A stretch of 57,119 bases of DNA from a virus (IMGVR_UViG_3300031840_000710:1-57119); one strand, 5' to 3'. Positions 3,490 through 54,088 are shown, counted from the first letter of the stretch. The notes: generated by a model from the sequence alone, not told the origin. Made by a program: numbers and translations.

Positions 3490-3492
3490 TTA

Positions 3493-12133: not shown

Positions 12134-12152
12134 GTTTTCTCCCCTCATTTAC

Positions 12153-12180
12153 AATATAACATGCGAGGAGATTTTGTCAA
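12153..12180 (-). promoter_or_regulatory. Sigma70-type promoter for primase
   Basis: TTGACA-16 nt-TATATT with TGn; the -35 box contains the TGA stop of the upstream gene. Confidence 0.85.
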
Positions 12181-13518: not shown

Positions 13519-13535
13519 ATAAACTCCTATTATAT

Positions 13536-13564
13536 AATATAACATGTTCTCAGCAAGTTGTCAA
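13536..13564 (-). promoter_or_regulatory. Sigma70-type promoter for RuvC-like gene
   Basis: TTGACA-17 nt-TATATT with TGn. Confidence 0.85.
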
Positions 13565-13586
13565 GTAAATATTACTATTTTTTACT

Positions 13587-14147: not shown

Positions 14148-14166
14148 TTTAATTCCTCTTTTGTTT

Positions 14167-14174
14167 TAAATAGT
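14167..14174 (-). promoter_or_regulatory. Putative late promoter ACTATTTA
   Basis: Octamer recurs in short intergenic gaps; 19 nt upstream of ATG. Confidence 0.65.
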
Positions 14175-15320
14175 TTATATATCAAGCTTCAACTTAAATG
14201 TATATTGTTTCTCTTCAGTCTTGCGAACAGGAGTTGCAACTTTTGCTATTCCAATTAAATTCTTGTCTTCATCATAAAGAGCAATCTTGGATATATAAGT
14301 TGTTTTAACAAAGTCAGGCTCAACATCTAGGAACTGCGAATGAACAACATTCTTTATTTTCTTTGGTTGTTCCATATATTGAATTGAGCCGGTTGAAACC
14401 CCTTGGGTCTCAGAAGCATCTAGGTAAGTTGGATTGTTAGAGTGATTAAGTTCTCCATAAGGAGCTGTTGCAAACATCGTCATTGTTTGTGTATGTGTGG
14501 TGCCCTGATAGTCTATCGCAAATGAAGCAGAGAGAGTTGTGAGTGTCGGAGAATTACCATCGTTTGCTCCATAGTTAAAATGAATCCACTTGGATGGACC
14601 GTTTGCGTCTGTCTGTATGGTTTCTGCGTTGAGATTCCAAGATCCTGTGAGAAGAAGAAATCCTTCTCTATATAAAGCTACACCAGCAACAGAACCAGAA
14701 CCAGTAGAACCTTCCGGTCCAACTTGAACCAATTCACCGTTATAGTTCTTATCTTGTAGTTCTCCGACCAATGTCCCTGTGACATAATATTTTAATGAGA
14801 TTGTGCCTTTCTTTATCTTTGATCCATAAAAGATTGATGGTATAGAGATCAAATTTATTGTTTGAGAAGACTTGTCTCCAAAAGAAGATGAATATTGATA
14901 ATGTGGAGACAAATAATTGTAATGATTTAAAGTATTCTGCAGTGCATTAATTCTAGTTCTTGTTGCTGTGCTATAATAATCTCGTGATATACTTGCCGAA
15001 AGGCTGTATGATCCAGTGGATGTTTCACCAAACAACAACGTTGCATTATACAATTGCTTTGATATAGTTTTGAGTGTATCTCTATGTCCATCTTTAATTA
15101 TAAAGGGATATATAAGATTACCCGCTGGGCGATCTATATTGTATTCATAGAGTGAAACGAACCCTTTAGGTACGCCAAGATTGTTAACTGTATTTGCACC
15201 GGATAAATGAGGCATATCGTTTATATAGATAGATCCACTTTGCGTATAAAACCTATATTGTGGATATGCTTCTATTGTATTGGTGAAGAGATCGTCTTCG
15301 TCAAACTTGTAAAATGACAT
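14175..15320 (-). CDS. Virion structural protein (tail/baseplate), paralog of 15330..16433
   Basis: Shared IKKGT, N(H/Y)S(N/T)NPTY and C-terminal YISKIALYDEDKNLIGIAK...KLKLDI motifs. Confidence 0.7.
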   Translation of the reverse strand: MSFYKFDEDDLFTNTIEAYPQYRFYTQSGSIYINDMPHLSGANTVNNLGVPKGFVSLYEYNIDRPAGNLIYPFIIKDGHRDTLKTISKQLYNATLLFGETSTGSYSLSASISRDYYSTATRTRINALQNTLNHYNYLSPHYQYSSSFGDKSSQTINLISIPSIFYGSKIKKGTISLKYYVTGTLVGELQDKNYNGELVQVGPEGSTGSGSVAGVALYREGFLLLTGSWNLNAETIQTDANGPSKWIHFNYGANDGNSPTLTTLSASFAIDYQGTTHTQTMTMFATAPYGELNHSNNPTYLDASETQGVSTGSIQYMEQPKKIKNVVHSQFLDVEPDFVKTTYISKIALYDEDKNLIGIAKVATPVRKTEEKQYTFKLKLDI

Positions 15321-15329
15321 GACTTCCTC

Positions 15330-16433
15330 CTAGTAGTCTAGGCGGACTCTGATAGTGAACTCTGTATCTGAGGATTTCTTAAGTGGCTCACTAAGCTTTG
15401 CAGTTGCTAATAGCTCATTATTATCATTATAAAGTCCAACAGAAGTAATATAAGAAACAGGAAGATCAGAAGATTGAGTTTTCACTCGGATCTTACTTCC
15501 GGAAAGGTAAGTTGGGTTTGTTGAATAATTGTATTCGTTGTGATTGATACGACAGAAGTATACAGAAGAATTAAGCTCAACTGTGTTGTTGAATTGTACA
15601 TTGTAAATTCTATTTCTCAATGAATCAGCTATAACTTCGTTTGTGGAACCGGTTACAATGTCAAGTCCGCTGTATCCACCGGCTGATAGAAGTCTGGTGG
15701 AGTCGGTGTTTGTAGTATTTAAGATACCACCCTTCGCAGCATCATGAAAAACTGATCCTGAAATTACAGCAACTCCGGCTTGATAAAATAAAAGCCCTAC
15801 AGCATAATATTGATTAGCAGCTAAAACAGCATTGCTACCAAAACTTTGAGTGGCATATAGAACCCCATATTCCCCAACTGGTGAATTAACCAAATAACCA
15901 TTAGATCCACTAAGATCTGTTAATTTGATTCGTCTAGTGAAAACTACACCAGCCTGATCATAGTCACTGTTCACTCCTAGTTCCAGTTCAAAAGTGCCTT
16001 TTTTGATTTCGTCTTTAATCAATAGACGAGAAAAATTCATAAAGAACACATTGTCCAGTTTTGCACCACCGGCAAGAATGTTTCCGTCTTGGTCAAAGCG
16101 TTGTATAGAGCCGGTGTGATCATATCCAGCGAGAACCTGTGCCATTTGATTATAAATATTTAATTTTTTGGATTTTTGACTTGTAACGCTAGAGTAGAGA
16201 CCAGATTGAGCACTAACACCAACTGTTAAATCAAAAATATGATTTGCAGAGGAACTTAGATAAGGATAATCATATACCGATTGAAACATGCCGTGAGCAT
16301 AATTCTTGATATTGTTATCTGAATATGTTCCGGATACAATTGTACCGGTCAAAGGAATCGCTTCATGAAGAAGTGTCCTTGTGTTTGCGACATCCTTTCC
16401 GATGTCTAGTGATTTGTAAAAACTTTCAGCCAT
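15330..16433 (-). CDS. Virion structural protein (tail/baseplate), paralog of 14175..15320
   Basis: C-terminal YITSVGLYNDNNELLATAKLSEPLKK...RVRLDY; start moved to MAESF to remove overlap. Confidence 0.7.
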   Translation of the reverse strand: MAESFYKSLDIGKDVANTRTLLHEAIPLTGTIVSGTYSDNNIKNYAHGMFQSVYDYPYLSSSANHIFDLTVGVSAQSGLYSSVTSQKSKKLNIYNQMAQVLAGYDHTGSIQRFDQDGNILAGGAKLDNVFFMNFSRLLIKDEIKKGTFELELGVNSDYDQAGVVFTRRIKLTDLSGSNGYLVNSPVGEYGVLYATQSFGSNAVLAANQYYAVGLLFYQAGVAVISGSVFHDAAKGGILNTTNTDSTRLLSAGGYSGLDIVTGSTNEVIADSLRNRIYNVQFNNTVELNSSVYFCRINHNEYNYSTNPTYLSGSKIRVKTQSSDLPVSYITSVGLYNDNNELLATAKLSEPLKKSSDTEFTIRVRLDY

Positions 16434-16443
16434 TATTTTCTCT

Positions 16444-17361
16444 CTATGAAATTGTTGATTTTGCGAAACGAACTGGGACATCTACAGAGTATCCTGTTTT
16501 CATTCCTGTGACTCGTACGATTGAGTCGATATGTTTAACTGCTTTCCCTTCAAGTGTAGAAGTTCCACCCAACTGTGAAAAAAGGAAGGTGCTAGTATTC
16601 AGATCAATTGAAGCAGCAATTTTAAACTCCAAGCGGGTTCCTCTAGGTCCAGCAATCGCTTCAGAAAGTCCAGCGCTCTCATCTGTGATTTGACTCACAA
16701 GCCCAACGTCTACTGTGTAGTATGCTATGTTGTCATCGTCAATATAATCTTCTGGGACCATATCTCCGTTAATTGTTGCAATCTTACCTAGGCGGTTATC
16801 AATCTGAATGATATAAGAATCCTCAATCAAATCCGGATCTAGACTCTCTTTTGGAGAAATTTCAGAAGAATCAACTCCTTGATCCAGACGAATTCTATTG
16901 TCTCCTGCAAGGGAAGATCCAAATATAACACCAGGAACCGGTTGTCCGGCATTATAACCTACAGAATATGCTGTAACATTGTCTGCAGTTCCTTCAGTCT
17001 CAGCATCAACTGCGACTATAAAGGCACCTGAAGTGTGCATTTTGGTAGAACTGTTAAGTTGGTTGATTTTAACAACCGGTAGATAAAGAAGATTCATAGA
17101 ACCATAAGAAATCAATTTAGACTTAACAGACCCTGCGTTGTCTGTAAAAGCTTCAAGCACAGGAGTTTGTAGAATTTCTACATCATAATAAGCAGACCCA
17201 CTAGCGTGAGTTGCATTGTAAAGTGTATAATTGATCTCATCATCTGCAAGAGCAAATTTTGAAATTTGAAATGACCCATCGCCCTTTGCGAGAAGTTTTC
17301 TTCCGTGATCTGTTAAAACAGCATCTAAAATAATATCGCCGCTATTGTCTAGAAAGCCCAT
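16444..17361 (-). CDS. Virion structural protein (tail/baseplate)
   Basis: N-terminal DAVLTDHGRKLLAKG...FALADDEINY, similar to 22123..23082; SD AGGAG. Confidence 0.7.
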   Translation of the reverse strand: MGFLDNSGDIILDAVLTDHGRKLLAKGDGSFQISKFALADDEINYTLYNATHASGSAYYDVEILQTPVLEAFTDNAGSVKSKLISYGSMNLLYLPVVKINQLNSSTKMHTSGAFIVAVDAETEGTADNVTAYSVGYNAGQPVPGVIFGSSLAGDNRIRLDQGVDSSEISPKESLDPDLIEDSYIIQIDNRLGKIATINGDMVPEDYIDDDNIAYYTVDVGLVSQITDESAGLSEAIAGPRGTRLEFKIAASIDLNTSTFLFSQLGGTSTLEGKAVKHIDSIVRVTGMKTGYSVDVPVRFAKSTIS

Positions 17362-17386
17362 ATGTTTCTCCTAATAATATTCATAA

Positions 17387-17394
17387 TAAATAGT
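17387..17394 (-). promoter_or_regulatory. Putative late promoter ACTATTTA
   Basis: Exact octamer in the 38-nt gap upstream of a structural gene. Confidence 0.65.
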
Positions 17395-17399
17395 TTGTC

Positions 17400-22123: not shown

Positions 22124-23082
22124 TAGCAATCCTCCAAGTCTTCGGGTCTCACGCGAGAGCCATATATATTAACATCAATATTTTCGCGATCTGGGCATTC
22201 AACTTCTAGATCTAAGAAAATGTCTTTCGCTTTTAATCTGCGAACGCCGGCGCAGATGTCCTCTTCCGGTATCTCTTTGTCAACAGAAATATCCATATAA
22301 TACTCAACGTAATCTGTTGTTAAGTCATCAGGTGCATCAATTGATTGGTTGATATCCGGCGAAAAATCTGGTTGATCAACAAGCATATTATTCTGTATCT
22401 GTCTATCTTGTTGATAAAATTTAAGCTTTCTATCAATTTCAATCTCGTCTGATTCATATAGATAGACCTCAACCTCGTATGAGTCTTTATGAAAAAACCC
22501 GTTTCTTTCAAATATATTTAGCAAAACTTGTTCCTCTATGATATCCACAAAGCTTCCGTCAGGTTTAACAGTAGCCGGCAGATCTCTATTAAATAGCAAT
22601 CCACTGTTGGATAGTTCAAATTTATTCTGATTTCCTACAGACATTGTATACTCTAAAGTCATTTCCAATTGTGGAATCGGCTGTGTTGCGGTTGTTGAGC
22701 CTGTGAGGGTTAACGAAGTTGTATCAATTTCGCCCAAGAGAGCGGTTATATTCCAACCTGCGGCTCTAGTCTCTGCTGTATTGTTTGTTCCGATCTTCTG
22801 CTGAAGATATGTAACTTGCTCAACTTTATTGTCAGCGTTATACAAGCTTGTGTCAACGCCCTTATAATTTGTTTGAGGCTTCATATATGGTGTCTCGGAG
22901 AGAATTCTATTCTTTGTTTGGGAATTGTTCTCTGTGCCTCCACCTTGTGTAATATCATAAAGCACATCGTCATCCAAGAACGAATAATACTTAGGCATTA
23001 ATTTTCCTTGTGATAGAAGCCTTCTACCGTGGGGCGTCAGCTCAATCTTCAATACGTCTTCTTTTTTATTAAAAAATGTCAT
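22123..23082 (-). CDS. Virion structural protein (tail/baseplate), N-terminally similar to 16444..17361
   Basis: IELTPHGRRLLSQG...FLDDDVLY. Confidence 0.65.
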   Translation of the reverse strand: MTFFNKKEDVLKIELTPHGRRLLSQGKLMPKYYSFLDDDVLYDITQGGGTENNSQTKNRILSETPYMKPQTNYKGVDTSLYNADNKVEQVTYLQQKIGTNNTAETRAAGWNITALLGEIDTTSLTLTGSTTATQPIPQLEMTLEYTMSVGNQNKFELSNSGLLFNRDLPATVKPDGSFVDIIEEQVLLNIFERNGFFHKDSYEVEVYLYESDEIEIDRKLKFYQQDRQIQNNMLVDQPDFSPDINQSIDAPDDLTTDYVEYYMDISVDKEIPEEDICAGVRRLKAKDIFLDLEVECPDRENIDVNIYGSRVRPEDLEDC

Positions 23083-26000
23083 TAGTTATCCTCCGGTTTT
23101 GGACCCGCATCATATCCGCCATCTTCCGGATCTCTGCGGCCATCACCATCATAATCAGAATTCTTTTGAGTTGCTGTGATTAGTTCGTATGGCGAATTTG
23201 GGTTGTTGAGGTTCTGTCTTTGCCACATTTGATATTCTCCATCTCCGAGGGCACCAGCTGCTTTGAGTTTCGCTCTATCCTCTGCTACCCTTTGTTGATA
23301 GGCTTCTTCTTCCTTCAAGATTTTATACGCAGCACCTTTCGCTCGTCGTTCTGCTTGAGCCGCTGCAGCAGTATTAAATCTAACTTCTTTAAGACTAGCA
23401 TCTAGAGAAGTACCTCCGGCGCCAACTTTATTGCCCAAAACAGGAACAATTGTATCACGAGGCTCTTGACCTGACTTAACGGCTCTTTCAGCAAATTTAA
23501 CTTCTGTTTCAATCTTCGCTAGCTCTACTAGGGAAAAGAAATCATAAGGCCAGTTGTAAGATATTTCTGCTTGATCTTCTTGGAAAAGATTAGTGTCTCC
23601 TCTCCCTATGATCTTCAAATTATAATCTATATTCGCTCTTTGCTTAACCTTGAATACCATCCAACGGACACGATCGGGTATTTCATTCCCAATAGCATTC
23701 ACGTCAAGTGTTCCTTCGGGATTTAATTTTGCTCCACCGCCAAGTAGTTCGTGAGCTAACAATTCATGACTTATAGAGGATTCTGCTGTATCAAAAGTTC
23801 TTCCAATTTCCGGATATAGATTCTGCCAAATATTTGCGAGATCTTGTTTCTTAAGAGTGTGAGAGAATTGGAAAATATACATTGCAAACGGATCAATTGC
23901 ATCGTTCCTTAAAAAGTCCATTGATGGCGGAAACACATATCCTTGCATTTTTACAATCATTTTAAGAACAGAGTCTCCGACCAGTGCTCGTTCTGTTTCA
24001 GTTCCGAACGCTCTTGTTATATCTATTCTGGGTATACGGAAGAATTTTCTATTTCCCTCTTCTTCAATGAATGGAACAGCAACAACCGCTTCCCTAATTT
24101 CTTTTGTATCTGCTATTTCACCAAGTTTTTTTGTTTCTGTTGTGAACCCGCACAAATCAGCCAAAGATTCAACTGTTGATGAGTCTCCTCCCAACGATTC
24201 GTCTATCCAAGCATTGGGCACATTATCAACTTGTAAAAATATTCCTTTTGTTGGATCTGTTTCAATATTTCCATATTGATGCCACATACCTCGTGGAACA
24301 GACTGAGAAGCATTTAGTGGAAGTGTTATACTGTTGCTAGCAGAAAGGTGATTGAAATTAAGCATTGGAGTTTCAAATTTTGTTTGAATAACCCAACGAG
24401 AAGGAGGGTCGCTTGGATCAGCGCCTGCTGCGCCTGCTGAGGTTTGTGAGAATAAGTTCACACTAGCGTTTAAATCCATGGCATGAGCATTGATGCTGAT
24501 TTTTTTAATGTATTCATTATCACTTGTATCGATGGGTGCATATCTATGAAAAGCAACAGTAGAACCAGAAATTATTTCTTGAATGGAGTGTTTTCCACTT
24601 CTAGTTGGAGTAAAAGTGATATCCGCCCAAGACTGTCCATAATAATATGGTGGAGTAAAAGCATAATTTTCTCCTTGGTCTGCTAGTGGTATATCGTAAT
24701 CAACGGATGCCAGAGTTCCTGTTAAGTACAGAGGAGGACCAAAAGCGGATGGGCGTGAATACATGGTGAATGTCTCGCGAGTGTCGCTGCTGTATTGTGG
24801 TGGAGTATAGAATCCACCAGAAGAAGAAACATTTGGGAGACTTGCTTGATCTGTACTCTTATACATCTTTACTCTCATCATATACGTTTTTCCAACTTCC
24901 GCATTTCCAACATTTGTATCGTTTGATGGAAGCGAAGATATTTGGGTCATATTTTTTTCACGCATAAAGAATTCTGTTGTCTCAGCTAAAAAGTTGTTAG
25001 CCATAAGTTTATAGCGATTGTTTCCATTTCCATCCCAAGATACAGAGCCAGAGTTGTTTGCATAAATATGAGGCTCATTGCAGTAGACGGGAGAACCAGC
25101 AAGATGTTTTTCCGGCTCAACAAGGGCCTCAAAGGGAATTCTACGGTTAAAAGTATCACCGGTTGTGGTTTTTATATAATAATTATCATTGCTTGTTGTT
25201 ACATTTGTCGCTATTGAGAGATTTGCATCAATCAGAGGATAGTCAACGGCAACACCAGACTTTATTGTATTAAAGAAAATACCCGGAGCGAACGTTGGAA
25301 CCATCAGATTTTGAAAAAGTGGCTCATCGTTTGTATTGACACCGAAAGTACTTGCAGCACCAGATACTGCGACAAAATCTCTATACGAATCATAAAACTG
25401 CTTTGCTAAGTCAACAGATCTTTGCGCGGGATAGAATCCTTCGTATGGGAGAAACTTTTTGATTGCTTTACATTTAAGAGAAATTGAATTAGGTGTAACA
25501 AATTCCTTATGGTCTTTCTTCACAACCTCAAAGTGCTTCATAAACTCTGATGTTGAATAAATCTTGTAAAAATTATCTTTGGAAGAATCGGTTGTATCCG
25601 ATAAAGCGCCGGTTAAAGAGAATATATTTGATACTTCCTCGGTTAGTCCCGTTGATTCGTAGGTCTCAATGTGCTCGCTTATTCTGAATTCCGGAATGAT
25701 TGAATAATCTTTTCCGTGTTGACGGACATCTTGAATGTAGTTGTCGTATGTGTCGTAGAATGGATTAAGACCAGATTGGGTACCAGCTTCCCATTTGGCT
25801 TCACCGGATGGTATTTGCTTACTGCTAATATCTCCAAATGTTGTTCCAAAATTTATTCCCTCTATTTTCATGCCGTTTGGAGAAACAACGGAAGAAGACA
25901 GCAACGTAACGTGTGGTCTATTGTACCTTGGGGCAACACCCAGGGTATTTTTTAGAGAACCGACTGAAACGAAAACATTAAGATTAAGTTCTCCGAAACT

Positions 26001-27011
26001 ATATCTATTTTGTAGTATACCGCCGTCGTTACCTTTGGTGTGTCTGGTGCCGCTCCAATTCTGCCAAGTTCCATTGGTGGCTGTTTCAACTGCCAATGAG
26101 GAAAAATCAGAGTAACTATCCAACGACCAAACACTCTGTGTTACAATGCTAGTGAAGATGTTTTGAAAAAAGAAGCCATTATCGGCAAATTCTTCTGTTC
26201 TATTTGTCCTATCGTCTCTCCATGGGAAAGAAAATGTTGTTCTTTGTCTCGTATAATTCTTATATTGATAAACACGAGGAGGATAAACACATTCGCGATA
26301 ACTAAAGAACTCAAATGTATCCATTGGAGAACCGTCTTTATCAAGCCCTCCGTTAAGATAAAAGTCTTTGACGGTATTGTATTGCGTGGATCGTTGAACT
26401 CTCAATCCATTATACTTATTGATTTCTTCATTCTTAAAGAAGTTTGTTTCGTTTCCATATGAAGAAACCAATTCAAATCTCTCAAGCGTTCCGTCATTAA
26501 TTATAGAGGCTCCACCAACAACAAAAGGTTTGTAGCGAGAAGATACGGGGTTTTCATCAAATTTCTTAATGGCTCCGTATTTCCCTCTTACCGTATTAAG
26601 CTTGCCGTTATTGTCCATAACGATCTCGGGACCGGGTTCTTCAACAAATGTAAAGACGTTCTCTTTGTTTTGTCTTCTTGTTAAAGGGTTTTGCCCTATT
26701 CTTATCTGCTTCCAAGTTGGAAATCCGTACGGACCATTTCTTTTAAGCATAAGAGCAGGAAAGAACGAAGCGGTTGTTGGAAGGTTATGAGGGAAAAGGT
26801 AGTTTTTGGCATTTTTTAGGTCATATGTAAATATGGATGGTAATCCTAAACCCATAGTATTCTGTGTGATTGGAAAATTTGTGCTATTACCATCCCAGTT
26901 TATTTTTTCATAATTATTTCCAACACCGACAATAGTTTGATTCTCTGGGCTCCAGCCCACAGGTTCATAAATAAATGTGTTTAATCCAACAAAGTCTACA
27001 TAATACGCCAT
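23082..27011 (-). CDS. Large virion structural protein (about 1309 aa)
   Basis: Long ORF in structural block; start moved to MAYYV (SD GGAG); C-terminal charged helix and DYDGDG motif. Confidence 0.7.
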   Translation of the reverse strand: MAYYVDFVGLNTFIYEPVGWSPENQTIVGVGNNYEKINWDGNSTNFPITQNTMGLGLPSIFTYDLKNAKNYLFPHNLPTTASFFPALMLKRNGPYGFPTWKQIRIGQNPLTRRQNKENVFTFVEEPGPEIVMDNNGKLNTVRGKYGAIKKFDENPVSSRYKPFVVGGASIINDGTLERFELVSSYGNETNFFKNEEINKYNGLRVQRSTQYNTVKDFYLNGGLDKDGSPMDTFEFFSYRECVYPPRVYQYKNYTRQRTTFSFPWRDDRTNRTEEFADNGFFFQNIFTSIVTQSVWSLDSYSDFSSLAVETATNGTWQNWSGTRHTKGNDGGILQNRYSFGELNLNVFVSVGSLKNTLGVAPRYNRPHVTLLSSSVVSPNGMKIEGINFGTTFGDISSKQIPSGEAKWEAGTQSGLNPFYDTYDNYIQDVRQHGKDYSIIPEFRISEHIETYESTGLTEEVSNIFSLTGALSDTTDSSKDNFYKIYSTSEFMKHFEVVKKDHKEFVTPNSISLKCKAIKKFLPYEGFYPAQRSVDLAKQFYDSYRDFVAVSGAASTFGVNTNDEPLFQNLMVPTFAPGIFFNTIKSGVAVDYPLIDANLSIATNVTTSNDNYYIKTTTGDTFNRRIPFEALVEPEKHLAGSPVYCNEPHIYANNSGSVSWDGNGNNRYKLMANNFLAETTEFFMREKNMTQISSLPSNDTNVGNAEVGKTYMMRVKMYKSTDQASLPNVSSSGGFYTPPQYSSDTRETFTMYSRPSAFGPPLYLTGTLASVDYDIPLADQGENYAFTPPYYYGQSWADITFTPTRSGKHSIQEIISGSTVAFHRYAPIDTSDNEYIKKISINAHAMDLNASVNLFSQTSAGAAGADPSDPPSRWVIQTKFETPMLNFNHLSASNSITLPLNASQSVPRGMWHQYGNIETDPTKGIFLQVDNVPNAWIDESLGGDSSTVESLADLCGFTTETKKLGEIADTKEIREAVVAVPFIEEEGNRKFFRIPRIDITRAFGTETERALVGDSVLKMIVKMQGYVFPPSMDFLRNDAIDPFAMYIFQFSHTLKKQDLANIWQNLYPEIGRTFDTAESSISHELLAHELLGGGAKLNPEGTLDVNAIGNEIPDRVRWMVFKVKQRANIDYNLKIIGRGDTNLFQEDQAEISYNWPYDFFSLVELAKIETEVKFAERAVKSGQEPRDTIVPVLGNKVGAGGTSLDASLKEVRFNTAAAAQAERRAKGAAYKILKEEEAYQQRVAEDRAKLKAAGALGDGEYQMWQRQNLNNPNSPYELITATQKNSDYDGDGRRDPEDGGYDAGPKPEDN

Positions 27012-27012
27012 T

Positions 27013-30000
27013 CTAATCTCCATATATTTCTGATGCGGTCGGGAAAGTTATTGCCGGAACAAATCCACTATCCCCATCTATAACTACCGAGGAACTCAGT
27101 ATTCCTGTTGGGTGTGCGTATCCATACATTCTTTGCTTTCCACTTGTGATACTATAATTACTTCCTAATGAAGAAGTTACCCAAGTGTATTGAAAGTCTG
27201 ATCTTGGAATTGGAGTGCTAATATACATATTGTCGTGTCTCTTCACAAGAACGGGCGCTAAAACGGTTGATGTATCGCTTGGTCTTCTATTCTCATTTCT
27301 TTGTTGTTTATGAGAAGAAGGCTTGTTAACTGCTGTTTGAAAGTTTGTTTCTGATAGAGATCTGTTTGTTATTGTAGCATATGAAGTATTTCTTGTATCT
27401 ACGCCATATTTTCCACAATGTCTAGACAATAAAGCCTTGTGAGAATCCCTTTGATTGAGTTGATTGTTCACTCTTATCGTTGTTGCTTCGCCCGATCCAC
27501 CGAAAGCATAGAACTCAGCTCCATCAGCGGAAGCAGATACGCGAACATCAATACCACGAACTGAAAGGTTGCGATAGTTGACGTTGTTGTAAACTGAGTA
27601 TTCCTGTGAGTAAGCATCTAAATATCCATAACTCAAAGTGTCAATTGAGCCGGGAGCAGAAAAGCGAGAAGTAATAACGGTTCTTGTGACAGATCCAGTT
27701 ATACGATCAATCGTAATGTCTTTTGAAAGAGAGGCTGAGACAAAATTTATTCCACCCGCAAAGCCAACTTCTGTACCAGGAAAAGTCAAATTTGCGTTTG
27801 TCCCTGAAGTTGTAATTGTTATATTGTGAGCTGAGCCAGTTTGACTAGCAGTTAAATGAAACACCGCTTGATGACCTGCGCTGGAATCAATTGTTATATT
27901 ATCATAGACAGTGTTGTCTTTAACGGACTGCGATAATGCATTCCAGAAAGCAGCATTTGTTCCACCAGTGAATTGCGGAATTGCTATAGCAGGACTTGTA
28001 GCCGTACTATTCATTACAAAAGTTTTATTCAGCACAATTGATCCGCCCGGATAGGCTCCTCTGTAGTTTGTTCCACCTGCGCCGTTTGACAAATTAGTAA
28101 CCGTTCCACAAGTTGCAACGGATCCAAAACCAGAAGTAGTCAAGGTTGTATTATAATCTGAGCCAGTTGCGGGTGCGGTTAAAGTAAAATTAGCATAAGG
28201 CAATGCCGGAGGTCCTGCGTTTGTATTAATAAAATTGTTTCTATCGTCTTGAACAGAAAAATTGCTACCAGATATGATATCGGTTCCTCCGGAGGATTCT
28301 TTCTCCAACGGAAACCACGCTATAATATTATTTCCTATAGAGACATCACAATATAGAGCAGTTGAGAAGTTGACGTAATGTCCTTTGTTATATATATAAT
28401 CAACGTGTGTTGAGGATAAATCAATATTCCAAAACACAAAATTTGAACCTGTTCCGTGAAACTGTTTGTTTTGAGCATTGTTGTTCAATATTGACCCGGT
28501 ACCGTCTGGTGTTACTAAAGCCATCGTTGCGCCACAGACTCCGGCACCTCCTACAGAAATATTATTACTAGTTGAACTGATTGCAGCATTATCAATATAG
28601 AAATCAACAGACCCTGGTCCGCTGCCATAATCATGTGAAACAACTAAGTGCATAAGCCCTCTGGTTTGGTAGGTTGATTCAAAGTTTGTTATAAACTGTG
28701 TTTTTATACATTGTGTACCCACAGAAGCACCATTGGATATAGCCTTATAATATAAGTCTCCGCTGGAAGATATAAAAAGTTCGCGAGACACTCCACCGGA
28801 TGAAGATGCAAATTGAAAAATAACCTTGTCTCTTGATTGAGCTGAAGATCCCGTGATGTCAATCCACCCTGAAAAAGAAAATTGATTTGTTGTATATTGC
28901 GAAGGGAGAGAACCAGTATTTATCACAGATTGCGGGGTCGCAGCAGAAGAAGTAAGAGAAAGTGATTCAACATTTCCCGGAGTAACCTCAGAAAAACTAA
29001 CTGCAAACGGCGTCTGTGCCTGTATTTTTGAGTCTAGATTATTCCAAAAAACAGTGTTACTGGAGCCGGTAGCAATATAAAAATTTGGATCACTGTCAGA
29101 AGGTGGTGTGCTAGTGCGAAAGAAAAACCTCTTATCGTTACCAGCGCCGTCAACAATTCTAATTCCTTCATTGTCTTTAAGTTGAGATCCGGTTGCGTGT
29201 ACTCTAAAAGTTGCATTACCGGCAGTTGTGCCGGCAACATAGGCGCCAGTTACCACAAAGCTTCCGGAAGCAAAAGCACTAGCAACAGCAGGGACGATAA
29301 CTTGCCCATCTGGTTGTCGGTTATTTTCGTATGTACCAAACACATTACCGGCACTAGCGGCCTGCTGTCCAATAAGCGTCATTGGATTAGTGGTTTGAGG
29401 AAGTTCGTTTGTAATTGAAACAGGAAGATAATTGGATTGAGCACTATTCTTTCTGAAATATAAATTATTCTGTTGTTTCCCAGTTCCAGCACTTATAAGT
29501 TCATAATTGTTGTAATAGTTTCCATGATTAATGCTTGAAGTGGTAGTCTGTATATTTGCAATATTAAACGATCGTTTTGCTCGTCCATCTCTGTAAAATG
29601 TGGCTGCTTTTTTTGCTGTGTCTGGGTAGGTGTTGGTTGCCAATGTCAAACCATATTGAGGATCAACCATACCAATGGCACCGTCCGATCCAGCAACACC
29701 TTGTTCTACCACCAAAATTCGCCAAGCTTCCGCTCTTGTGTAGAGGTTATGCAGGTTGTTAGGCGGAGCAGTGCCGGTTTCGTCATCACGCAAGGTCGCG
29801 TCATAGCGATTGAGATCAATGTGCCTAGCCTGGTGACCGCCAACCCACTGTTGGGAGAAAGGCCCTTGAAGTGGAACATCATTTGAAATACTAGTCGTAT
29901 CTGAATGTAGATTGGTTATCACAGCATTACTTTTATAGCCTTGTGAAACTGCTTTGTTGTACCCAGTTGCTATTGAACCGGAGAATATATCAAAGGGAAG

Positions 30001-33000
30001 GCGTAATCCACCCTTAACAGATATGTCATATGACGCACTATCATTAATCGGTACAAACGTTGAACTAGGAGAGCCAACAGCAAATTTACCGCTAAAAACA
30101 GTTGTATTAAACTTTTTCTTTTCATTTGGGATCTCAACATCATCACAGGTATTCACAGGCAGTTCTATACCTTGTCCAGTACCGGCACCTACAATAAGAA
30201 CATTTTTCGGAATTCCAATAGGAGTCAGATCAGAATGGCGATGCAAAGCAGACCAGACAAAATCTCTATCTTTCTGTAGGTTATAATTGATACCAGAATG
30301 GATGGTCTGGCTGATTTGGGAACCAACACGGTATGTGTTCGTGAATCTTCTTATCGCATAGGTTGAACCAGAATATGAAGTTCTATCTTTATTGGCTACA
30401 TTTGAAGCTTGAGCATTATTGTTATTAACAATTACCTTGCGAATATCTTCTCGGTTTGCAATATCTGTTCTTTCTGCTCTTTCTTTTTGCCAAAGACAAT
30501 TGTTGTTATCTCCACCCTCTAGTGGTGCGTGACCAAATTGCCATTGGTATTTTAATTCACCAACGCCTTTTACAGAACCTTCTGTTGCTGTATGGATGGA
30601 TGTTAGCGGAAACTTATTTTGGTATTTGTTTCTCTCAAATAAATGAGATTCAACAACATCCGATATTCCTTTAGAGAAACGGACGCTCGCTGGGAACATT
30701 TGAGAAACCATATACGATACAGAAGAATCAATCCACTTAAAGTAATCAGAAAATCTATCAAAATCTGGATCTGCCTCTACATCTTCAAAGAATAGTCTAC
30801 GAACTTGATCTAATTTTTTGTATTGTATTCTGTATCTTTCAACAGCTTCGCCCATTAAATTAGACATTTCTTGAGCAGTTGATAGATTTCTCATCATTTC
30901 TTCTGAAATTACTTGGTACATACTCTTCTCTAGAGAGTAAAAGTTATCAGAAACATCTTCATCTCTAATGAAATATTCTTGTTGTTCTCCTTTAATCGTC
31001 ACACGGTCAGAGGAATAAGAGATTTCCGGAAGTTCTTTCTTTGAAGAGTAGATAATTTCATTGGAAACAACATTTGTGGTTGATACAGGGAACCCAAAAC
31101 CTTTTGCTCGGTGCTCTCTGCGTATAATATTATCCATCCAACCGTATCTGCTGTCTGTTGAGCCACTAGAAACATCGACTACGATAAATTCACCAGATGT
31201 ATCCGACGTGGATACTGTTTCAAAATCCCAATCAGCGGTCAATAGTTCATACGAGGGAACTTCAATTTGTGATAAATCTTTACCAAATATAGTTGAAGGG
31301 CGACTTGACCTTCTATTTCCTCGTGAAGTGATATCTGTATTGTGTAGTTTAACTGAATCATCGGAAATATAGTCATACCATAGGTCAAAACGTCCAATTT
31401 TTATGTCTGTTTGCTCTAAAACACTTCCTGTGAAGTTGATTCTGTGGGCTCCTGCGTAGAATCTCTTCGGGTTTGAGAGGTATGCAGAGCCAGTGTCATA
31501 GTTTAAGCTTTGTGTTAATGTGAATTCATTCTTAATTGTATCAAAAGCATAGTTTACACCATAAAATTCTAGTTGGTAATTTCTGTTGGAAGACGTAACA
31601 ACATTACCTGCTATCGGATAATCAACAGGCTTCACTCTAACAGCCAAATTCCACTGTTCATTTGAGTAAATTTGCTTATATGCCGGTGTTTCTAGAGTGA
31701 AATTACCCGCATAATCTTTCAAAACAAACTTAGCAGTTGGGGATTCCAATTCGTCTCTGACCAAATACACTTGAAAGTTAGCCAAATCCTGGGTTGCCCA
31801 AGTGTAATCTGCACTCGCTGGACGGGCTTGATGAAGTCCAAACACAGAAGCAGATTGAAACGGAGTAGCAAAATGCCCACTATCAAAAATTCCAAGCTTT
31901 TTTGGAACTATAATTGAAATTTCACTGCTCAATGCGTTATATTGTTCTAGTTTTCCAGTGCCAGAGCCAGAAATATATGTTAAAGAATGGTTTGCAGACG
32001 ATGTTTGGAACAAAGTAGCACTTAAGTGCGATAATTTGTTAAAATCTACATACTTTTTATTCTCAGAAGTGTGTTTGAAGGCGTCCGAAAAGTAGTGAGT
32101 ACCTTCATCTGTATAGATATTTAGTTTTACTATCTCATCATCAATCCCAAAACAGCGCAACATATTACGAATTGCACCTTCGGTACCTTTATGTTTGTAT
32201 ATATTCTCTAAATTGTTGTAGATATTTGTATAGACTTGGTTTTTTATATCAGTTAGTTTCTTTTCAAACTGGATTTTGTTTAAGTCTCGTGAACCAAACG
32301 CCTCTAAAACGTTAGCATCTGCGAATAAATTAGGCACAACGAGACCTTTTTCTTCTAGAAGACGATCGGCGAAAGGTAAAGCCTTATAACTTGAACTAGG
32401 ATAGACCTTATTTTTGAGAGATGGCAACGCTGTAATTTGAGCATGCAGTGTATCAAAATAACTTGAAATTATTTGATATAGATATTTTGTTGAAAATCCA
32501 TTTGAAGGGTCTTCGTCTCTAATCCATTGCGGGATTTTGTTATAAAGCAATCCAGTGTTTTGATTGTCATGCGTTGCTCCGGAAGCCATTAAACTTGTCT
32601 TAAGAGAGGATACTTCTGGATGTGTACTATAAATTATTGGATCTTTTTCCTCAGATGCAACTAAGCCAGACTCCACAAAAGCAGAGCTTGTAGATCTTGC
32701 ACCGGCGGTATAACCATTCCACGAACCATTGACCAATCGGCCAGAATAATCTAAAACAACCGAATCTGTTGCTGTTTTTCCAACGACACCTTCGTTAAAC
32801 TTATAGTATACGCCAAGATATGTGTTAGCGTCATCTGTGTTTGTACCGCCACCGATTGTTCTATACCAGTTATTATAAATCTCTTCTGAGGTTCTGCGGG
32901 TCTTCCAATAACGGAAATCGTCTAAACTTGCACTTAATTTACCGGAAAAAGGCAATGCTGTTGCAGCTCCTTGGCTTGAGGAAGGGCTTGTTTGTAGTGC

Positions 33001-33921
33001 TCCGATATAGCCGTTTATTAAGCCACCAATTTCGTTAACACCGACTGAACCGAGTGATTTGCTCTCATTTAAATCTCCGTCAACATAAAGTCTAGATGTT
33101 ACTCCAGTAGAAGCAGAAACAAAAGATAAGGCGTAATGATGCCAATCTGATAGGGAAGAAGTGGTTACTGTTGATGTTCCAATTGATTGCTCAAAGAAAC
33201 CTACTGTGCCTGACTGCATGGTTACAATAAAAGTATCTGTTCCACTGGTAGTGCCAGAGAGGGCCAGTGTAAAACGTCCGTAATTTACCGATGAAGATAT
33301 CTCTCCATTCCAAAGGTCCAAAATAACTTCTTTGTTCGTTTTAGTTAGGTCAAACGCATCTTTTTTAAGCCAGAACTCGGTCGTCAATCCTTGTGGGATG
33401 TTCATACGAAGACTGCTTACTCTTTTCTTTGCAGCATCATAAATTACTGATTTATCAAAAGTTTTCTGAAGTGGTTTTGTAGCCATATCATCTGCTACGT
33501 GAATACCACCTCGGAGATAGATATATTCTGTACTGGTAGGTAAACCGTAACCATCTGCTGTTGAGGTTTGTACGCCCCATCCGCCATAAGAAAGATTAAC
33601 ATATCCGTTTGTTTTTGGATATTTTTGCTCTAGAATATACTTGTCTAAATAAGAAGAAGATAGTTCAAATACAAGCTTTTCATTCTCTGAGCCGTCGTAT
33701 GGATAATTGTTATGTATTCTTTCAATTGAGTTTTTATAATACTCTTCGGCTGAGCCAAACTTTGCAAAGTTAGAGGCACTAGCAAAATTAATAAAGGGAT
33801 AAAAGGTCTCATCTCTTTCCGTCGTGGTTAGCACTAAATCTTTTGATTCTACTAATTTACTGCCGGATGCAGCGTTTTCAACTGTTGTTGTCTTGTTGTT
33901 AAATAAACTTTTAATACTCAT
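27013..33921 (-). CDS. Very large baseplate/tail protein (2302 aa) with LamG/concanavalin A-like domains
   Basis: TTEFWLK...WHHYALSF...RLYVDG...LDDFRYWK and a second FSFSGWID...HLVVS...FYIDN lectin-like domain; YKHKGTEGAIRNMLRCFG resembles a baseplate wedge motif. Confidence 0.75.
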   Translation of the reverse strand: MSIKSLFNNKTTTVENAASGSKLVESKDLVLTTTERDETFYPFINFASASNFAKFGSAEEYYKNSIERIHNNYPYDGSENEKLVFELSSSYLDKYILEQKYPKTNGYVNLSYGGWGVQTSTADGYGLPTSTEYIYLRGGIHVADDMATKPLQKTFDKSVIYDAAKKRVSSLRMNIPQGLTTEFWLKKDAFDLTKTNKEVILDLWNGEISSSVNYGRFTLALSGTTSGTDTFIVTMQSGTVGFFEQSIGTSTVTTSSLSDWHHYALSFVSASTGVTSRLYVDGDLNESKSLGSVGVNEIGGLINGYIGALQTSPSSSQGAATALPFSGKLSASLDDFRYWKTRRTSEEIYNNWYRTIGGGTNTDDANTYLGVYYKFNEGVVGKTATDSVVLDYSGRLVNGSWNGYTAGARSTSSAFVESGLVASEEKDPIIYSTHPEVSSLKTSLMASGATHDNQNTGLLYNKIPQWIRDEDPSNGFSTKYLYQIISSYFDTLHAQITALPSLKNKVYPSSSYKALPFADRLLEEKGLVVPNLFADANVLEAFGSRDLNKIQFEKKLTDIKNQVYTNIYNNLENIYKHKGTEGAIRNMLRCFGIDDEIVKLNIYTDEGTHYFSDAFKHTSENKKYVDFNKLSHLSATLFQTSSANHSLTYISGSGTGKLEQYNALSSEISIIVPKKLGIFDSGHFATPFQSASVFGLHQARPASADYTWATQDLANFQVYLVRDELESPTAKFVLKDYAGNFTLETPAYKQIYSNEQWNLAVRVKPVDYPIAGNVVTSSNRNYQLEFYGVNYAFDTIKNEFTLTQSLNYDTGSAYLSNPKRFYAGAHRINFTGSVLEQTDIKIGRFDLWYDYISDDSVKLHNTDITSRGNRRSSRPSTIFGKDLSQIEVPSYELLTADWDFETVSTSDTSGEFIVVDVSSGSTDSRYGWMDNIIRREHRAKGFGFPVSTTNVVSNEIIYSSKKELPEISYSSDRVTIKGEQQEYFIRDEDVSDNFYSLEKSMYQVISEEMMRNLSTAQEMSNLMGEAVERYRIQYKKLDQVRRLFFEDVEADPDFDRFSDYFKWIDSSVSYMVSQMFPASVRFSKGISDVVESHLFERNKYQNKFPLTSIHTATEGSVKGVGELKYQWQFGHAPLEGGDNNNCLWQKERAERTDIANREDIRKVIVNNNNAQASNVANKDRTSYSGSTYAIRRFTNTYRVGSQISQTIHSGINYNLQKDRDFVWSALHRHSDLTPIGIPKNVLIVGAGTGQGIELPVNTCDDVEIPNEKKKFNTTVFSGKFAVGSPSSTFVPINDSASYDISVKGGLRLPFDIFSGSIATGYNKAVSQGYKSNAVITNLHSDTTSISNDVPLQGPFSQQWVGGHQARHIDLNRYDATLRDDETGTAPPNNLHNLYTRAEAWRILVVEQGVAGSDGAIGMVDPQYGLTLATNTYPDTAKKAATFYRDGRAKRSFNIANIQTTTSSINHGNYYNNYELISAGTGKQQNNLYFRKNSAQSNYLPVSITNELPQTTNPMTLIGQQAASAGNVFGTYENNRQPDGQVIVPAVASAFASGSFVVTGAYVAGTTAGNATFRVHATGSQLKDNEGIRIVDGAGNDKRFFFRTSTPPSDSDPNFYIATGSSNTVFWNNLDSKIQAQTPFAVSFSEVTPGNVESLSLTSSAATPQSVINTGSLPSQYTTNQFSFSGWIDITGSSAQSRDKVIFQFASSSGGVSRELFISSSGDLYYKAISNGASVGTQCIKTQFITNFESTYQTRGLMHLVVSHDYGSGPGSVDFYIDNAAISSTSNNISVGGAGVCGATMALVTPDGTGSILNNNAQNKQFHGTGSNFVFWNIDLSSTHVDYIYNKGHYVNFSTALYCDVSIGNNIIAWFPLEKESSGGTDIISGSNFSVQDDRNNFINTNAGPPALPYANFTLTAPATGSDYNTTLTTSGFGSVATCGTVTNLSNGAGGTNYRGAYPGGSIVLNKTFVMNSTATSPAIAIPQFTGGTNAAFWNALSQSVKDNTVYDNITIDSSAGHQAVFHLTASQTGSAHNITITTSGTNANLTFPGTEVGFAGGINFVSASLSKDITIDRITGSVTRTVITSRFSAPGSIDTLSYGYLDAYSQEYSVYNNVNYRNLSVRGIDVRVSASADGAEFYAFGGSGEATTIRVNNQLNQRDSHKALLSRHCGKYGVDTRNTSYATITNRSLSETNFQTAVNKPSSHKQQRNENRRPSDTSTVLAPVLVKRHDNMYISTPIPRSDFQYTWVTSSLGSNYSITSGKQRMYGYAHPTGILSSSVVIDGDSGFVPAITFPTASEIYGD

Positions 33922-35830
33922 CTTGTTCTACTCTGATTTTGAATGTATAGGGTTGCTCTCTGTAAGAAGAAAGAGAATCTTCATAGAAGGAAAGCTTCAA
34001 TTCATATGTATAGCCCTCTTCTAATAAGTCCATATCCAAATCAAAGTAGTTTCCATCGGAATCATACGAAAGCATTGTTTCTGCTGTGGAGCCTGTTCCA
34101 TATGGTATTACTATCTTTTTATCTGATGCTCTTGTGATTTGATAGGATGCGCTTTCTATCAATAAGTTTTCTGGTGTTGATTTTGCGGTTGTATATATAT
34201 TTGGAGACCAGTTCTTCTCTCTGACATATAGTCTAAATCTTTCAGTTTGCCCTCTCGTATATTTGGGCTTAAGGTTTTTAACCTTCATAACATATTTTGA
34301 ATTTGGATTATAATTTGAGAAAGAATGTTCCTTTGGGACAATAACTGATCCAGTGTGTAATTCACTTCCGCTCATTGTCCAGACATCAACCAAATAAGGA
34401 TATGTTGAGGTTACTGCGCTTGCTGTTGCAGAAAATGTCGCCTTGTAAACACCTTTTGATACTCGCGATGCTGATAGGAAATTTACAGCTGCATTAGAAG
34501 AGTTTCTAAAATAACGTGCCGTTCCTTCAGGTACTGAACCGGAAGAATAATACAGATTTAAGACTGGTATTGCAGTGGAGCTACCAGCGATGTCGCGAAG
34601 GTTTCCACGGATGTAGTTGTACATAAAAAGACTGTTTAAGTTCTCAGCTGCTGGAGCAAGAGAAGAACTAAGATAAAAGTTTCCTCTATTATCTTTTCTA
34701 GTGGAATCCCAACGAGCCTCAAGGACAGGACGATCAAAGTAGAATTCAGAAGATCTTGCAAAGAATTTCTTTGTGTAATAAGAAATCACAGCACCGGCTG
34801 GGTTAGAAGAAGCGTCATATGCTTCGTACGAAGAAGACAGTCTGATGCCAAACCCATGGTTTTCTTTGGAGCCCAATACGTTTCCACCGCTATTAATCCA
34901 CTGTTCAACAAGGGTCGTAACATCTACTTCCAAATCTTCATCACCTTTAGGAAAAGAAGCAACAAAAGAGGAGCTAGAATCTGTATAATAGTCTCCACCG
35001 GCTGTTGACCAAGTTCCACTTCCACCGGTAAAACCGTTTGCAGAATTAGAAAGTGATAAACCTGTGACTCCGGATAGATCTATCGCAGTGTTTCCTGCGC
35101 GTCCAGTTGTTTTTTGCTTTATTAATAAAGTATGCTCTGATGTAGCGTCGCCAGCCGCTGTAATAGTGCTAGCTTCTATGTCTAGAGCCGAAATGTTATT
35201 GATTGCTGTTTTGATTGCAGTCATTGCGTTATCATTTTGGTCTGTTCCCGGAGCGCCAAAGCCAATTGTTCCGCCAGTTAAAGTACTGCTGTTGTAGTCT
35301 ATTGTAAAAGTCTGTGCGGTACCATCTGAATCTGTTAGGACAAACGTTTGATTGTGCATAGAGGCCAGGTTCGTACCGCCAGCCAATTTAATTGTGGCTG
35401 ATGCACTGACAAAACTACCATTTGCATTTATCCAATTTGATCCAATTTTATCATAAGTAATATCTGAATATCCTTCCATATCCAGCCCGTTACCTTCTTG
35501 CCAAGATCCGGATACGCCTTGAACTGTTAATTTAAAATCTTTTGGCAAAGTGTGTGGATGTTTAGCATTAAACATACGGAGATAAAAAGATACACTACCG
35601 GAAGCTGGAATATTTTCTGCGGTTCTATCTGACGATATATCCGTCACTGGGAATTGTAGTAGAATTCTAGCTAGCTCTGTTGAGGTTGCGCTTTCTTGTG
35701 CATATATTGAAAATGTTTCTAAAACGTCGGCTTGGCCCATATTGGAGCCGGTTCCGCGAGTTGTTAAGTTTTCTTGAAAAGCATTTGTGATAGTATTATC
35801 AGCATCTGCAAAGTATCTTTTAATGGCCAT
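33911..35830 (-). CDS. Virion protein with DNRLRE/CBM96-like domain interrupted by an insertion
   Basis: ADADNTI...ARILLQF...DVTTLVEQW...NHGFGIRL...PVLEARW motif order. Confidence 0.6.
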   Translation of the reverse strand: MAIKRYFADADNTITNAFQENLTTRGTGSNMGQADVLETFSIYAQESATSTELARILLQFPVTDISSDRTAENIPASGSVSFYLRMFNAKHPHTLPKDFKLTVQGVSGSWQEGNGLDMEGYSDITYDKIGSNWINANGSFVSASATIKLAGGTNLASMHNQTFVLTDSDGTAQTFTIDYNSSTLTGGTIGFGAPGTDQNDNAMTAIKTAINNISALDIEASTITAAGDATSEHTLLIKQKTTGRAGNTAIDLSGVTGLSLSNSANGFTGGSGTWSTAGGDYYTDSSSSFVASFPKGDEDLEVDVTTLVEQWINSGGNVLGSKENHGFGIRLSSSYEAYDASSNPAGAVISYYTKKFFARSSEFYFDRPVLEARWDSTRKDNRGNFYLSSSLAPAAENLNSLFMYNYIRGNLRDIAGSSTAIPVLNLYYSSGSVPEGTARYFRNSSNAAVNFLSASRVSKGVYKATFSATASAVTSTYPYLVDVWTMSGSELHTGSVIVPKEHSFSNYNPNSKYVMKVKNLKPKYTRGQTERFRLYVREKNWSPNIYTTAKSTPENLLIESASYQITRASDKKIVIPYGTGSTAETMLSYDSDGNYFDLDMDLLEEGYTYELKLSFYEDSLSSYREQPYTFKIRVEQDEY

Positions 35831-37629: not shown

Positions 37630-37650
37630 TTGTAATCCTCTCAACTAAAA

Positions 37651-37671: not shown

Positions 37672-38091
37672 TTAAAGTACGTTATCGTTAACTTCATTGA
37701 TTGTTAAATCAAATGTTGAAGAAGTGGGACTATCAGTTACCGAATACTTTATTTTTATATTCATTCTATTGGAATCTGGAGATATACTGATCTGTAAGTC
37801 TAGAACTGCTATGTAAGGTACAAATATTGATAATTGTGACAATATGTTCTCGCGCAATGGCGGTAGTCCGTTGGATCCTCTAGTAATTGTTGTATTGTTT
37901 TCAAAAAGATATTGTCTAAGTCCCACACCAAAAGCAGGGCTCATCATACGTTCTCCCGGAGAAGTCAACAGAGTCATTTTAATATTTTGATCTACTACTT
38001 TGGTGAGATCTGTTACGCCGTAAACTTCATATCTTCCGGTCTCGTCGTTTATCTGTAGTGGTATTTTTGGTGCTATTGTTTGTGTTGGCAT
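37672..38091 (-). CDS. Baseplate wedge protein gp25/GPW-like (sheath initiator)
   Basis: QNIKMTLLTSPGERMMSPAFGVGLRQYLFE; start moved to MPTQ (SD GAGG). Confidence 0.9.
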   Translation of the reverse strand: MPTQTIAPKIPLQINDETGRYEVYGVTDLTKVVDQNIKMTLLTSPGERMMSPAFGVGLRQYLFENNTTITRGSNGLPPLRENILSQLSIFVPYIAVLDLQISISPDSNRMNIKIKYSVTDSPTSSTFDLTINEVNDNVL

Positions 38092-38104
38092 ATTACAATC
38101 CTCT

Positions 38105-54059: not shown

Positions 54060-54088
54060 AATATAACACACTCAAGTTAACTTGTCAA
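54060..54088 (-). promoter_or_regulatory. Sigma70-type promoter for the glycosyltransferase operon
   Basis: TTGACA-17 nt-TATATT with TGn; T-rich upstream tract. Confidence 0.85.

Follow-up and report, generated by a model that had tools for sequence, protein, structure and literature searches.

The tripeptide [ST]-G-S, with alanine tolerated at its middle position, is a real, specific and selected motif that characterises virion proteins, outside their conserved cores, in a single deep clade of large aquatic phages related to T4. Our analysis concerns IMGVR_UViG_3300031840_000710:1-57119, a 57-kb virus contig of 57,119 nucleotides, referred to below as the window, which is a complete record by itself and carries every gene on the minus strand. 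An earlier examination of this DNA without database searches (the sequence-only reading) had proposed that [ST]-[GA]-S tripeptides saturate a subset of the tail and baseplate proteins encoded between positions 14175 and 35830, and that phage-encoded glycosyltransferases (GTs) glycosylate the virion at these sites. The enrichment is confirmed by the randomization tests reported here, whereas glycosylation is one of several explanations that must be weighed against each other.

The motif in the window

Since we are interested in the motif apart from the amino acid composition of the proteins that contain it, we counted [ST][GA]S in each protein and compared the count with 2000 whole-protein, composition-preserving shuffles of that protein. 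Four proteins, all encoded on the minus strand, are enriched: a 639-residue protein without a Pfam or PHROG match, encoded directly after the gp6-like baseplate gene (33911..35830; 11 observed, shuffle mean 2.88, z 4.9, p 0.0005); a giant tail or fibre-like protein of 2302 residues (27013..33921; 27 observed, shuffle mean 7.88, z 7.1, p 0.0005); a highly conserved, abundant virion-block protein of 381 residues (14175..15320; 8 observed, shuffle mean 0.95, z 7.5, p 0.0005); and its 383-residue paralogue (15330..16481; 5 observed, shuffle mean 1.07, z 3.9, p 0.005). Pooled, the four proteins hold 51 sites where 12.75 are expected (Poisson 6e-16), a number that none of 1000 shuffles reaches. None of the remaining 34 open reading frames (ORFs) of the window is significant, and together they contain 13 sites against 15.16 expected. 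The hand counts of the sequence-only reading (11, 8, 5 and more than 20) agree exactly with those of the program, as does its estimate of about zero to two sites in the 631-, 944- and 2242-residue proteins, which have 0, 2 and 1, respectively; and the excess that it claimed stands above the shuffled expectation in all four proteins.

It is important to ask whether such a pattern could be an artefact of composition, low complexity, a motif in the DNA, or the choice of a motif after the fact. The four proteins are indeed rich in S, T and G (S 9.7-12.5%), and the motif was picked by a reader who had already seen the sequences. Nevertheless, when shuffling is confined to blocks of 20, 40 or 80 residues, p remains at or below 0.005 in all four proteins, which rules out local composition as the cause of the enrichment. 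When all tripeptides are scanned without bias, TGS ranks first (20 observed, 2.95 expected) and SGS third (16 observed, 3.8 expected), and a tripeptide with a z-value as large as that of TGS arises in just one of 600 shuffles. The codons of the motif vary from site to site, with serine codons of both the TCN and the AGY type in use, so that the signal lies at the level of the protein and a DNA-level motif is ruled out. The same tripeptides, moreover, come out on top in two cultured relatives described below. We therefore consider an artefact extremely improbable.

The motif is sharply defined. Enrichment before G-S is limited to T (6.8 fold) and S (4.2 fold), and enrichment after [ST]-G to S (5.3 fold), with T at 1.9 fold and N absent where 4.2 are expected. 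The middle position favours G (5.3 fold), with A (2.5 fold) and S (2.0 fold) behind it. The analogues of the motif with N or D are not enriched. Enrichment amounts to 4-7 fold for T or S in x-G-S and to 5-6 fold for S in [ST]-G-x, and a second data set, consisting of the phages Mel-JY01 and immuto, shows the same residue specificity. Nor do the enriched proteins favour either of two known sequons, the N-x-[ST] sequon occurring 40 times against 52.2 expected (z -2.0) and D-[ST]-[AILVMT] 13 times against a shuffle mean of 14.7.

The paralogous 381- and 383-residue proteins apart, no homology between the enriched proteins was found by BLAST, profile hidden Markov models or hhalign. The giant proteins of the window have no internal repeats (no self-hits at E <= 10) and a flat histogram of distances between motifs, and the candidate sites range from one end of the proteins to the other (relative positions 0.01 to 1.0). 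A shared domain or internal repeats, as the cause of the enrichment, can thus be rejected, and the earlier claim that the motif is dispersed through unrelated proteins is upheld. The accompanying claim, that tandem repetition is absent, is true of the proteins in the window but not of the clade, since fibres of two relatives hold tandem arrays of the motif: one in immuto (97658-100819) with 53 copies where 12.2 are expected, and one in the complete relative G010 (122699-127054) with 76. Both of these array fibres also repeat a GDGSxLTG-like element beside their SGSF/TGSF runs.

Conservation and location of the motif in related phages

The motif is under purifying selection, and its positions turn over while its density is kept. 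Across 80 related viral loci, the families of the 381- and 383-residue proteins are enriched 5.6 fold and 4.0 fold, respectively (n=77 each), as against a ratio of 0.91 for the 614 unassigned same-strand ORFs of the same loci. In G010, a complete 203-kb relative, homologues of the window's enriched proteins are enriched again (11 sites against 1.8 expected, 49 against 9.3, and 7 against 1.2); more enriched virion proteins are encoded beyond the point where the window ends, and the non-structural proteins are at baseline. The S and T residues of the motif are more conserved than other S and T residues (0.73 against 0.52, p 0.007; 0.85 against 0.58, p 6e-5). At the same time, the sites shared between the window and G010 number only 4 of 11 in the 639-residue protein, 5 of 27 in the 2302-residue protein, 4 of 8 in the 381-residue protein and 0 of 5 in the 383-residue protein, whose G010 homologue has four sites of its own, none of them at the window's positions. 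Substitutions between the two phages, such as SAS to TGS or SGS, keep the motif class.

Turnover is also seen within single families. The 120 homologues of the 639-residue protein carry on average 8.9 motifs (1.96 expected). The motif begins at 41 different columns of the alignment; 5 of these hold it in 80% of the sequences or more, and 24 in fewer than 5%. The 2302-residue protein corresponds in G010 to a protein of 3902 residues, the one with 49 motifs. The 1313-residue protein of the structural block (23082..27023, minus strand) is not significantly enriched in the window (4 sites, 2.1 expected, p 0.15), and fragments of its family in relatives have a ratio of 2.9.

The 381-residue protein is a member of an unannotated marine family of great size, with more than 4785 scored homologues and 2962 clusters at 50% identity that match its profile. 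Members reach about 850 residues through insertions at a few fixed points. A first AlphaFold2 (AF2) model of the protein was poor, with a mean predicted local distance difference test (pLDDT) score of 54.7, and a model built from 88 sequences reached 85.2. In this predicted structure 7 of the 8 sites occupy loops or the ends of strands, as the sequence-only reading had expected of a motif placed in turns. A Foldseek search with the model gave no match at E <= 0.001, and VIA-align against the PDB gave only weak ones (best Z 5.4; Z 4.4 with the first model). Several of these, at Z 4-5, align the N- and C-terminal parts with tail-tube-like proteins, whose likeness does not extend to the middle part, which has a weak resemblance to Ig-like folds (Z 3.5-4.1). 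Profile searches with the protein against PDB sequences were empty, and the protein atlas holds no named family for it. Thus, although the enriched proteins had been labelled tail or baseplate proteins, that label is not established for the 381- and 383-residue pair.

The position of the motif within proteins of recognised function is informative. We identified the sheath and the major head protein of G010 by PHROG, and counted motifs in conserved core and non-core parts over five genomes, with expectations computed for each part. In the sheath family, the conserved core contains 3 motifs (3.9 expected) and the non-core part 51 (11.0 expected); in the capsid protein, the corresponding numbers are 1 (2.7 expected) and 18 (5.0 expected). 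The portal, the gp6-like and gp25-like proteins and the 2242-residue protein are at baseline. For example, the gp6/J-like baseplate wedge protein of the window (35830..37644, minus strand; phrog_219 at 2.3e-20), which serves as an internal negative control, has no motif where 1.13 are expected, its homologues in G010, Mel-JY01 and immuto have none either, and the gp25-like wedge protein (37672..38157, minus strand; phrog_261 at 2e-18) has none against 0.15. By analogy with T4 structures, the non-core insertions of sheath and capsid proteins presumably face outward, and the motif-bearing parts would then lie on the surface of the particle. G010 has two adjacent sheath-like paralogues, of 1009 residues (134132-137161) and 990 residues (137289-140261), which have motif-bearing stretches such as LRVSASDAT and AIQSGS in common.

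The cultured relatives are Flavobacterium phage vB_FspM_immuto, Microcystis phage Mel-JY01 and Rhodothermus phage RM378. Both immuto and Mel-JY01 have the window's main GT4 gene and the gp6-like protein, and in both the enrichment runs through the entire tail module encoded after the gp6-like gene (for instance, 13 sites against 2.3 and 9 against 0.8 in Mel-JY01, and 8 against 2.3 in immuto, in addition to the array fibre mentioned above). SGS and TGS are the top two tripeptides in each. RM378, which has a GT homologue, contains a block of moderately enriched proteins, with 72 sites against 32.3 overall; the RM378 proteins used for ranking tripeptides were chosen by their enrichment, and that ranking is therefore partly circular. 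As for phages without a GT homologue at E <= 1e-8, the motif is not enriched in 31 proteins of T4, including fibres, sheath and capsid (13 against 24.1), and is in weak excess in a 100-kb part of S-RSM4 (73 against 49.0).

Glycosyltransferases and candidate readers of the motif

The window encodes a cluster of GT genes on the minus strand (48908-54029). Its first gene specifies a GT4-family (Glycos_transf_1) enzyme (52764..54029; PF00534 at 1e-14), 61% identical to its G010 homologue, and is followed by a probable GT4-type GT (51550..52767; GT4-conflict at 20.1 bits, below the cut-off of 26) that is 41% identical to a G010 ORF whose own region is above the cut-off for PF00534. Next come two GT2-family enzymes, one above the cut-off for PF00535 (50553..51644; 2.9e-06) and 42% identical to its G010 homologue, the other matching PF13704 (49801..50556; 9e-14), with a SunS-type peptide S-glycosyltransferase as its best NCBIfam match (33 bits, far below the cut-off of 350). 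The last is a possible GT4-like enzyme (48908..49804; Glyco_transf_4 at 26.8 bits, cut-off 28.5). Of the five GTs originally claimed, then, three are above the Pfam cut-off, while those at 48908-49804 and 51550-52767 fall below it; homologues of three of the five were found in G010.

The GT cluster is a core feature of the lineage. Of 30 related contigs, 19 have PF00534 genes, including all four with a completeness of at least 90%, and the 11 contigs without a match are all at most 48% complete. Of 50,697 phage records, just 9 contain a homologue of the main GT4, and these include immuto, Mel-JY01, LR756508, RM378 and S-CBS4. In S-CBS4, two GT genes and a gene for an S-adenosylmethionine-dependent methyltransferase lie inside the head module (9916-12282), between the portal and protease genes. 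G010 has an island of about 17 kb (ORFs at 112-16999 within its region 40001-60000) with NeuB, a CMP-sugar cytidylyltransferase, two aminotransferases, two epimerase/dehydratases, a radical-SAM protein, a GT2 and two GT15-like genes (an alpha-mannosyltransferase family), a content that suggests nonulosonic-acid synthesis; NeuB is found in 2 of 5 near-complete relatives.

A GT cluster in a phage could conceivably act on DNA. No ThyA-family hydroxymethylase was found in any of the five near-complete relatives, and the DNA of immuto is described as containing three canonical nucleosides with fdPreQ1 replacing deoxyguanosine, no sugar-modified base being reported in the part of that source available to us (PMC10516641). 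Together these data make DNA an unlikely target of the GTs.

Directly upstream of the cluster lies a promoter-like element, TTGACA-N14-TGTTATATT (54060..54088, minus strand). It is one of five such elements, TTGACA-N13/14-TGTTATATT, situated in intergenic gaps on the coding (minus) strand; the others are at 10968-10995, 12153-12180, 13536-13564 and 55567-55595. The part TGTTATATT occurs 9 times in all against 1.16 expected, and the element is probably an early or middle promoter class of the phage. A T4-type late promoter, TATAAATA, was considered as well and is not enriched (7 against 4.45).

What might read the motif? The named hosts, Flavobacterium, Microcystis and Rhodothermus, belong to different phyla. 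Since the hosts are so diverse and the proteins that carry the motif are unrelated, any shared reader of it should be encoded by the phage. The conserved GTs are the only candidate in view, and the only conserved enzyme set we have seen that could plausibly act on hydroxyls. According to the explanation that we favour, the motif would be recognised, or used as an acceptor, by a modifying enzyme that the phage encodes; the clade's conserved GT4-GT4-GT2 cluster would O-glycosylate the Ser and Thr hydroxyls of the motif in the host cytoplasm; and the outcome would be a glycan coat on the surfaces of capsid, sheath, and distal tail or fibres. Action of the GTs on virion proteins at the motif, like any role of the glycans, is something we infer from this combination of motif and genes. 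That the motif is an O-glycosylation sequon we consider quite possible, if somewhat short of an even chance. A broader version holds that [ST]-G-S is a clade-wide three-residue code for O-glycosylation, read by GT4-GT4-GT2 so as to coat outward domains, with variable sugar islands (NeuB, CMP-sugar cytidylyltransferase) adding nonulosonic acids in some members; the clade would here comprise the uncultured marine phages, immuto, Mel-JY01 and perhaps RM378. This version we think rather unlikely as a whole.

Several observations weigh against glycosylation. The sequence-only reading had expected the enrichment to accompany the GT families across related phages, and it does so in the marine relatives (including G010), immuto, Mel-JY01 and RM378. 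It fails to do so in two phages with GT homologues. In LR756508, a syntenic huge phage whose homologue is 28% identical, enrichment is weak (19 sites against 13.0 over 33 ORFs), no ORF reaches p < 1e-3, and the protein resembling the 639-residue one has no sites at all; in the siphovirus S-CBS4 (24% identity) there is no general enrichment (38 against 31.6 over 29 proteins). The co-occurrence is, furthermore, confounded with phylogeny. The large terminase (TerL) of the window is 41-45% identical to those of immuto, Mel-JY01 and LR756508, and such possible common ancestry of the enriched phages means that the co-occurrence with GTs is not independent of descent; since no close relative without GTs was found among the relatives examined, the two cannot be separated. 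The GTs themselves resemble only generic GT2 and GT4 profiles, and no Maf-type GT (PF01973) was found in any of the five near-complete relatives. Finally, the promoter-like element precedes the SbcC-like, primase and RuvC-like genes, a peptidase/nuclease pair and the GT cluster, and no structural gene. Because the GT cluster has this promoter class in common with replication genes, the GTs are probably expressed with the latter and not late.

The promoter class also favours the principal rival, in which phi-[ST]-G-S-phi is a purely structural micro-motif of tight turns, strand ends and packed small-residue beta segments, free of any modification, while the GTs act elsewhere, for example by remodelling host surface glycans. 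Further observations support this rival, and those on the flanks, the hairpin, the kept sites and the arrays count against glycosylation too. As the sequence-only reading had observed, the motif is often preceded by a hydrophobic residue: hydrophobic residues occupy positions -2, -1 and +1 at frequencies of 0.46-0.48, compared with a background of 0.31, and no context wider than these flanks is conserved. In the predicted structure of the 381-residue protein, SGS28 forms the two-residue turn of a hairpin and other sites lie at strand edges and strand-loop junctions. Of the eight sites in that protein, seven are each retained by 74-98% of the 120 closest homologues, which is what structural residues would show. 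The fibres of immuto and G010 contain tandem arrays of SGSF-SGSF and [ST]AS[YF] at a spacing of 4-9 residues with regular aromatics; these look like a fibre building block, structural in appearance. A mild excess is found in fibre-like proteins outside the clade (47 against 27.2 in four giant proteins of S-RSM4; 18 against 9.0 in gp48 of S-CBS4), and the strength of enrichment seems to track relatedness and not the presence of GTs. Yet a structural motif does not readily account for one sharp tripeptide in families without detectable homology or repeats, nor for the fact that sheath and capsid proteins lack it in their conserved cores. Other turn-forming variants, in which N, D or T takes an outer position, are not enriched; positions turn over at constant density; the LR756508 homologue of the N-terminal part of the 639-residue protein lacks the motif, and so the fold does not require it; and T4 virion proteins show no excess. 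We regard a purely structural role as a tentative explanation, to be taken seriously although clearly short of an even chance.

A different phage-encoded reader might also be responsible, through phosphorylation, acylation, a cross-link or an assembly chaperone, the GTs being unrelated to the motif. Clade specificity, the spread over unrelated proteins, the restriction to non-core parts, turnover at kept density and the several host groups fit such a reader equally well, and the promoter class of the GTs, together with the two GT-homologue phages that show little enrichment, loosens the link to glycosylation. However, the window yielded no candidate for such a kinase, acyltransferase or chaperone, and the GT cluster is the one conserved enzyme set we have seen that plausibly acts on hydroxyls. 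We judge this alternative improbable.

Known systems and other features of the window

In mycobacteriophages, phage-encoded GTs place glycans on the C-termini of capsid and tail-tube subunits (PMC12619734, summarising Freeman et al. 2023, in the part of the source available to us). That system resembles the glycosylation proposed here in its use of phage GTs, and in the available part of the same source its glycans are proposed to act as a shield; it differs in that the glycans are C-terminal, whereas the sites considered here are distributed along entire proteins and share a defined tripeptide. In addition, neither the hosts nor the phage lineage is related to those considered here, and our candidate sites are known from sequence. 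Apart from mycobacteriophages, for which no defined acceptor motif is given, our literature search found no phage-encoded glycosylation of virion proteins; for the present clade it found neither an [ST]-G-S sequon nor virion glycosylation (supplementary files aside).

The serine-rich-repeat adhesins of Gram-positive bacteria are glycosylated as well (PMC6973325 and PMC5578698, in their available parts). As in the mechanism considered here, several GTs O-glycosylate Ser and Thr inside the cell, and the [ST]AS arrays of the relatives' fibres look similar to these adhesins. Unlike the window's motif, which is dispersed in non-repetitive proteins, the adhesins consist of long low-complexity repeats that are exported by accessory Sec. 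The enzymes concerned are GtfA/GtfB together with further GTs; no orthologue of the priming GT was recognised in the window, whose GTs have generic GT4 matches and score 21.1 bits against SdgA and 17.7 against SdgB (cut-off 800).

Other systems offer partial parallels. Heptosylation of AIDA-I and TibA is a cytoplasmic O-glycosylation of Ser in folded, beta-rich repeats, where a short strand-loop-strand is recognised; the enzyme family and the sugar are different, the substrates are bacterial adhesins, and no homologue was found here, although no search was aimed at one. Chloroviruses, which infect eukaryotes, glycosylate their capsid with cytoplasmic machinery of their own. The window's GT4 weakly matches B736L of chlorovirus PBCV-1 (PDB 3oy2, E 3.6e-07), in the generic GT-B nucleotide-binding part only, and chlorovirus glycans, unlike those envisaged here, are N-linked at other sites. 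The general O-glycosylation sequon of Bacteroidota, D-[ST]-[AILVMT], is likewise three residues long and is used in bacteria that host at least one member of the clade, but glycosylation at it takes place outside the cytoplasm, away from where phage particles are put together, and it lacks the enrichment seen for [ST]-G-S. Ig-like decoration domains are promiscuous extra surface domains on capsid, sheath, tube and fibre proteins, and the weakly Ig-like middle of the 381-residue model recalls them; by contrast, no domain family common to the enriched proteins was detected, only the hydrophobic flanks of the motif being conserved among them.

If the motif is a glycosylation sequon, it would be the first of its kind as far as we have found, and virion glycosylation could be predicted from sequence. 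A glycan coat on abundant marine particles (the 381-residue protein has thousands of homologues in ocean metagenomes) would then bear on adsorption, stickiness to marine polymers, grazing, decay and host recognition. If the motif is structural instead, [ST]-G-S would still be a useful marker of non-core virion parts, and would represent an unexplained rule of protein architecture.

The assignment of the window to T4-related phages with contractile tails relies on its T4 gp17-like large terminase, portal, gp6/J-like and gp25-like genes, and on the sheath and major head protein of G010. The remaining genes recognised are the SbcC-like, primase, RuvC-like and PhoH/PIN genes. Of the ten structural-block proteins (14175-37644), none is matched by Pfam and one by PHROG, namely the gp6-like protein. 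The ORF at 55615-56934 has an N-terminal PIN domain fused to a PhoH-like ATPase (PF13638 at 1.8e-28; PF02562 at 9.6e-54). Between this gene and that of a PD-(D/E)XK nuclease sits an ORF of 227 residues (54873-55556) with sub-threshold matches to metallopeptidases (an ATLF-type domain at 22.9 bits; Peptidase_M90). An ORF of 131 residues (48025-48420) has a faint match to S-adenosylmethionine decarboxylase (E 0.006), and a speD gene is annotated in cyanophage S-RSM4.

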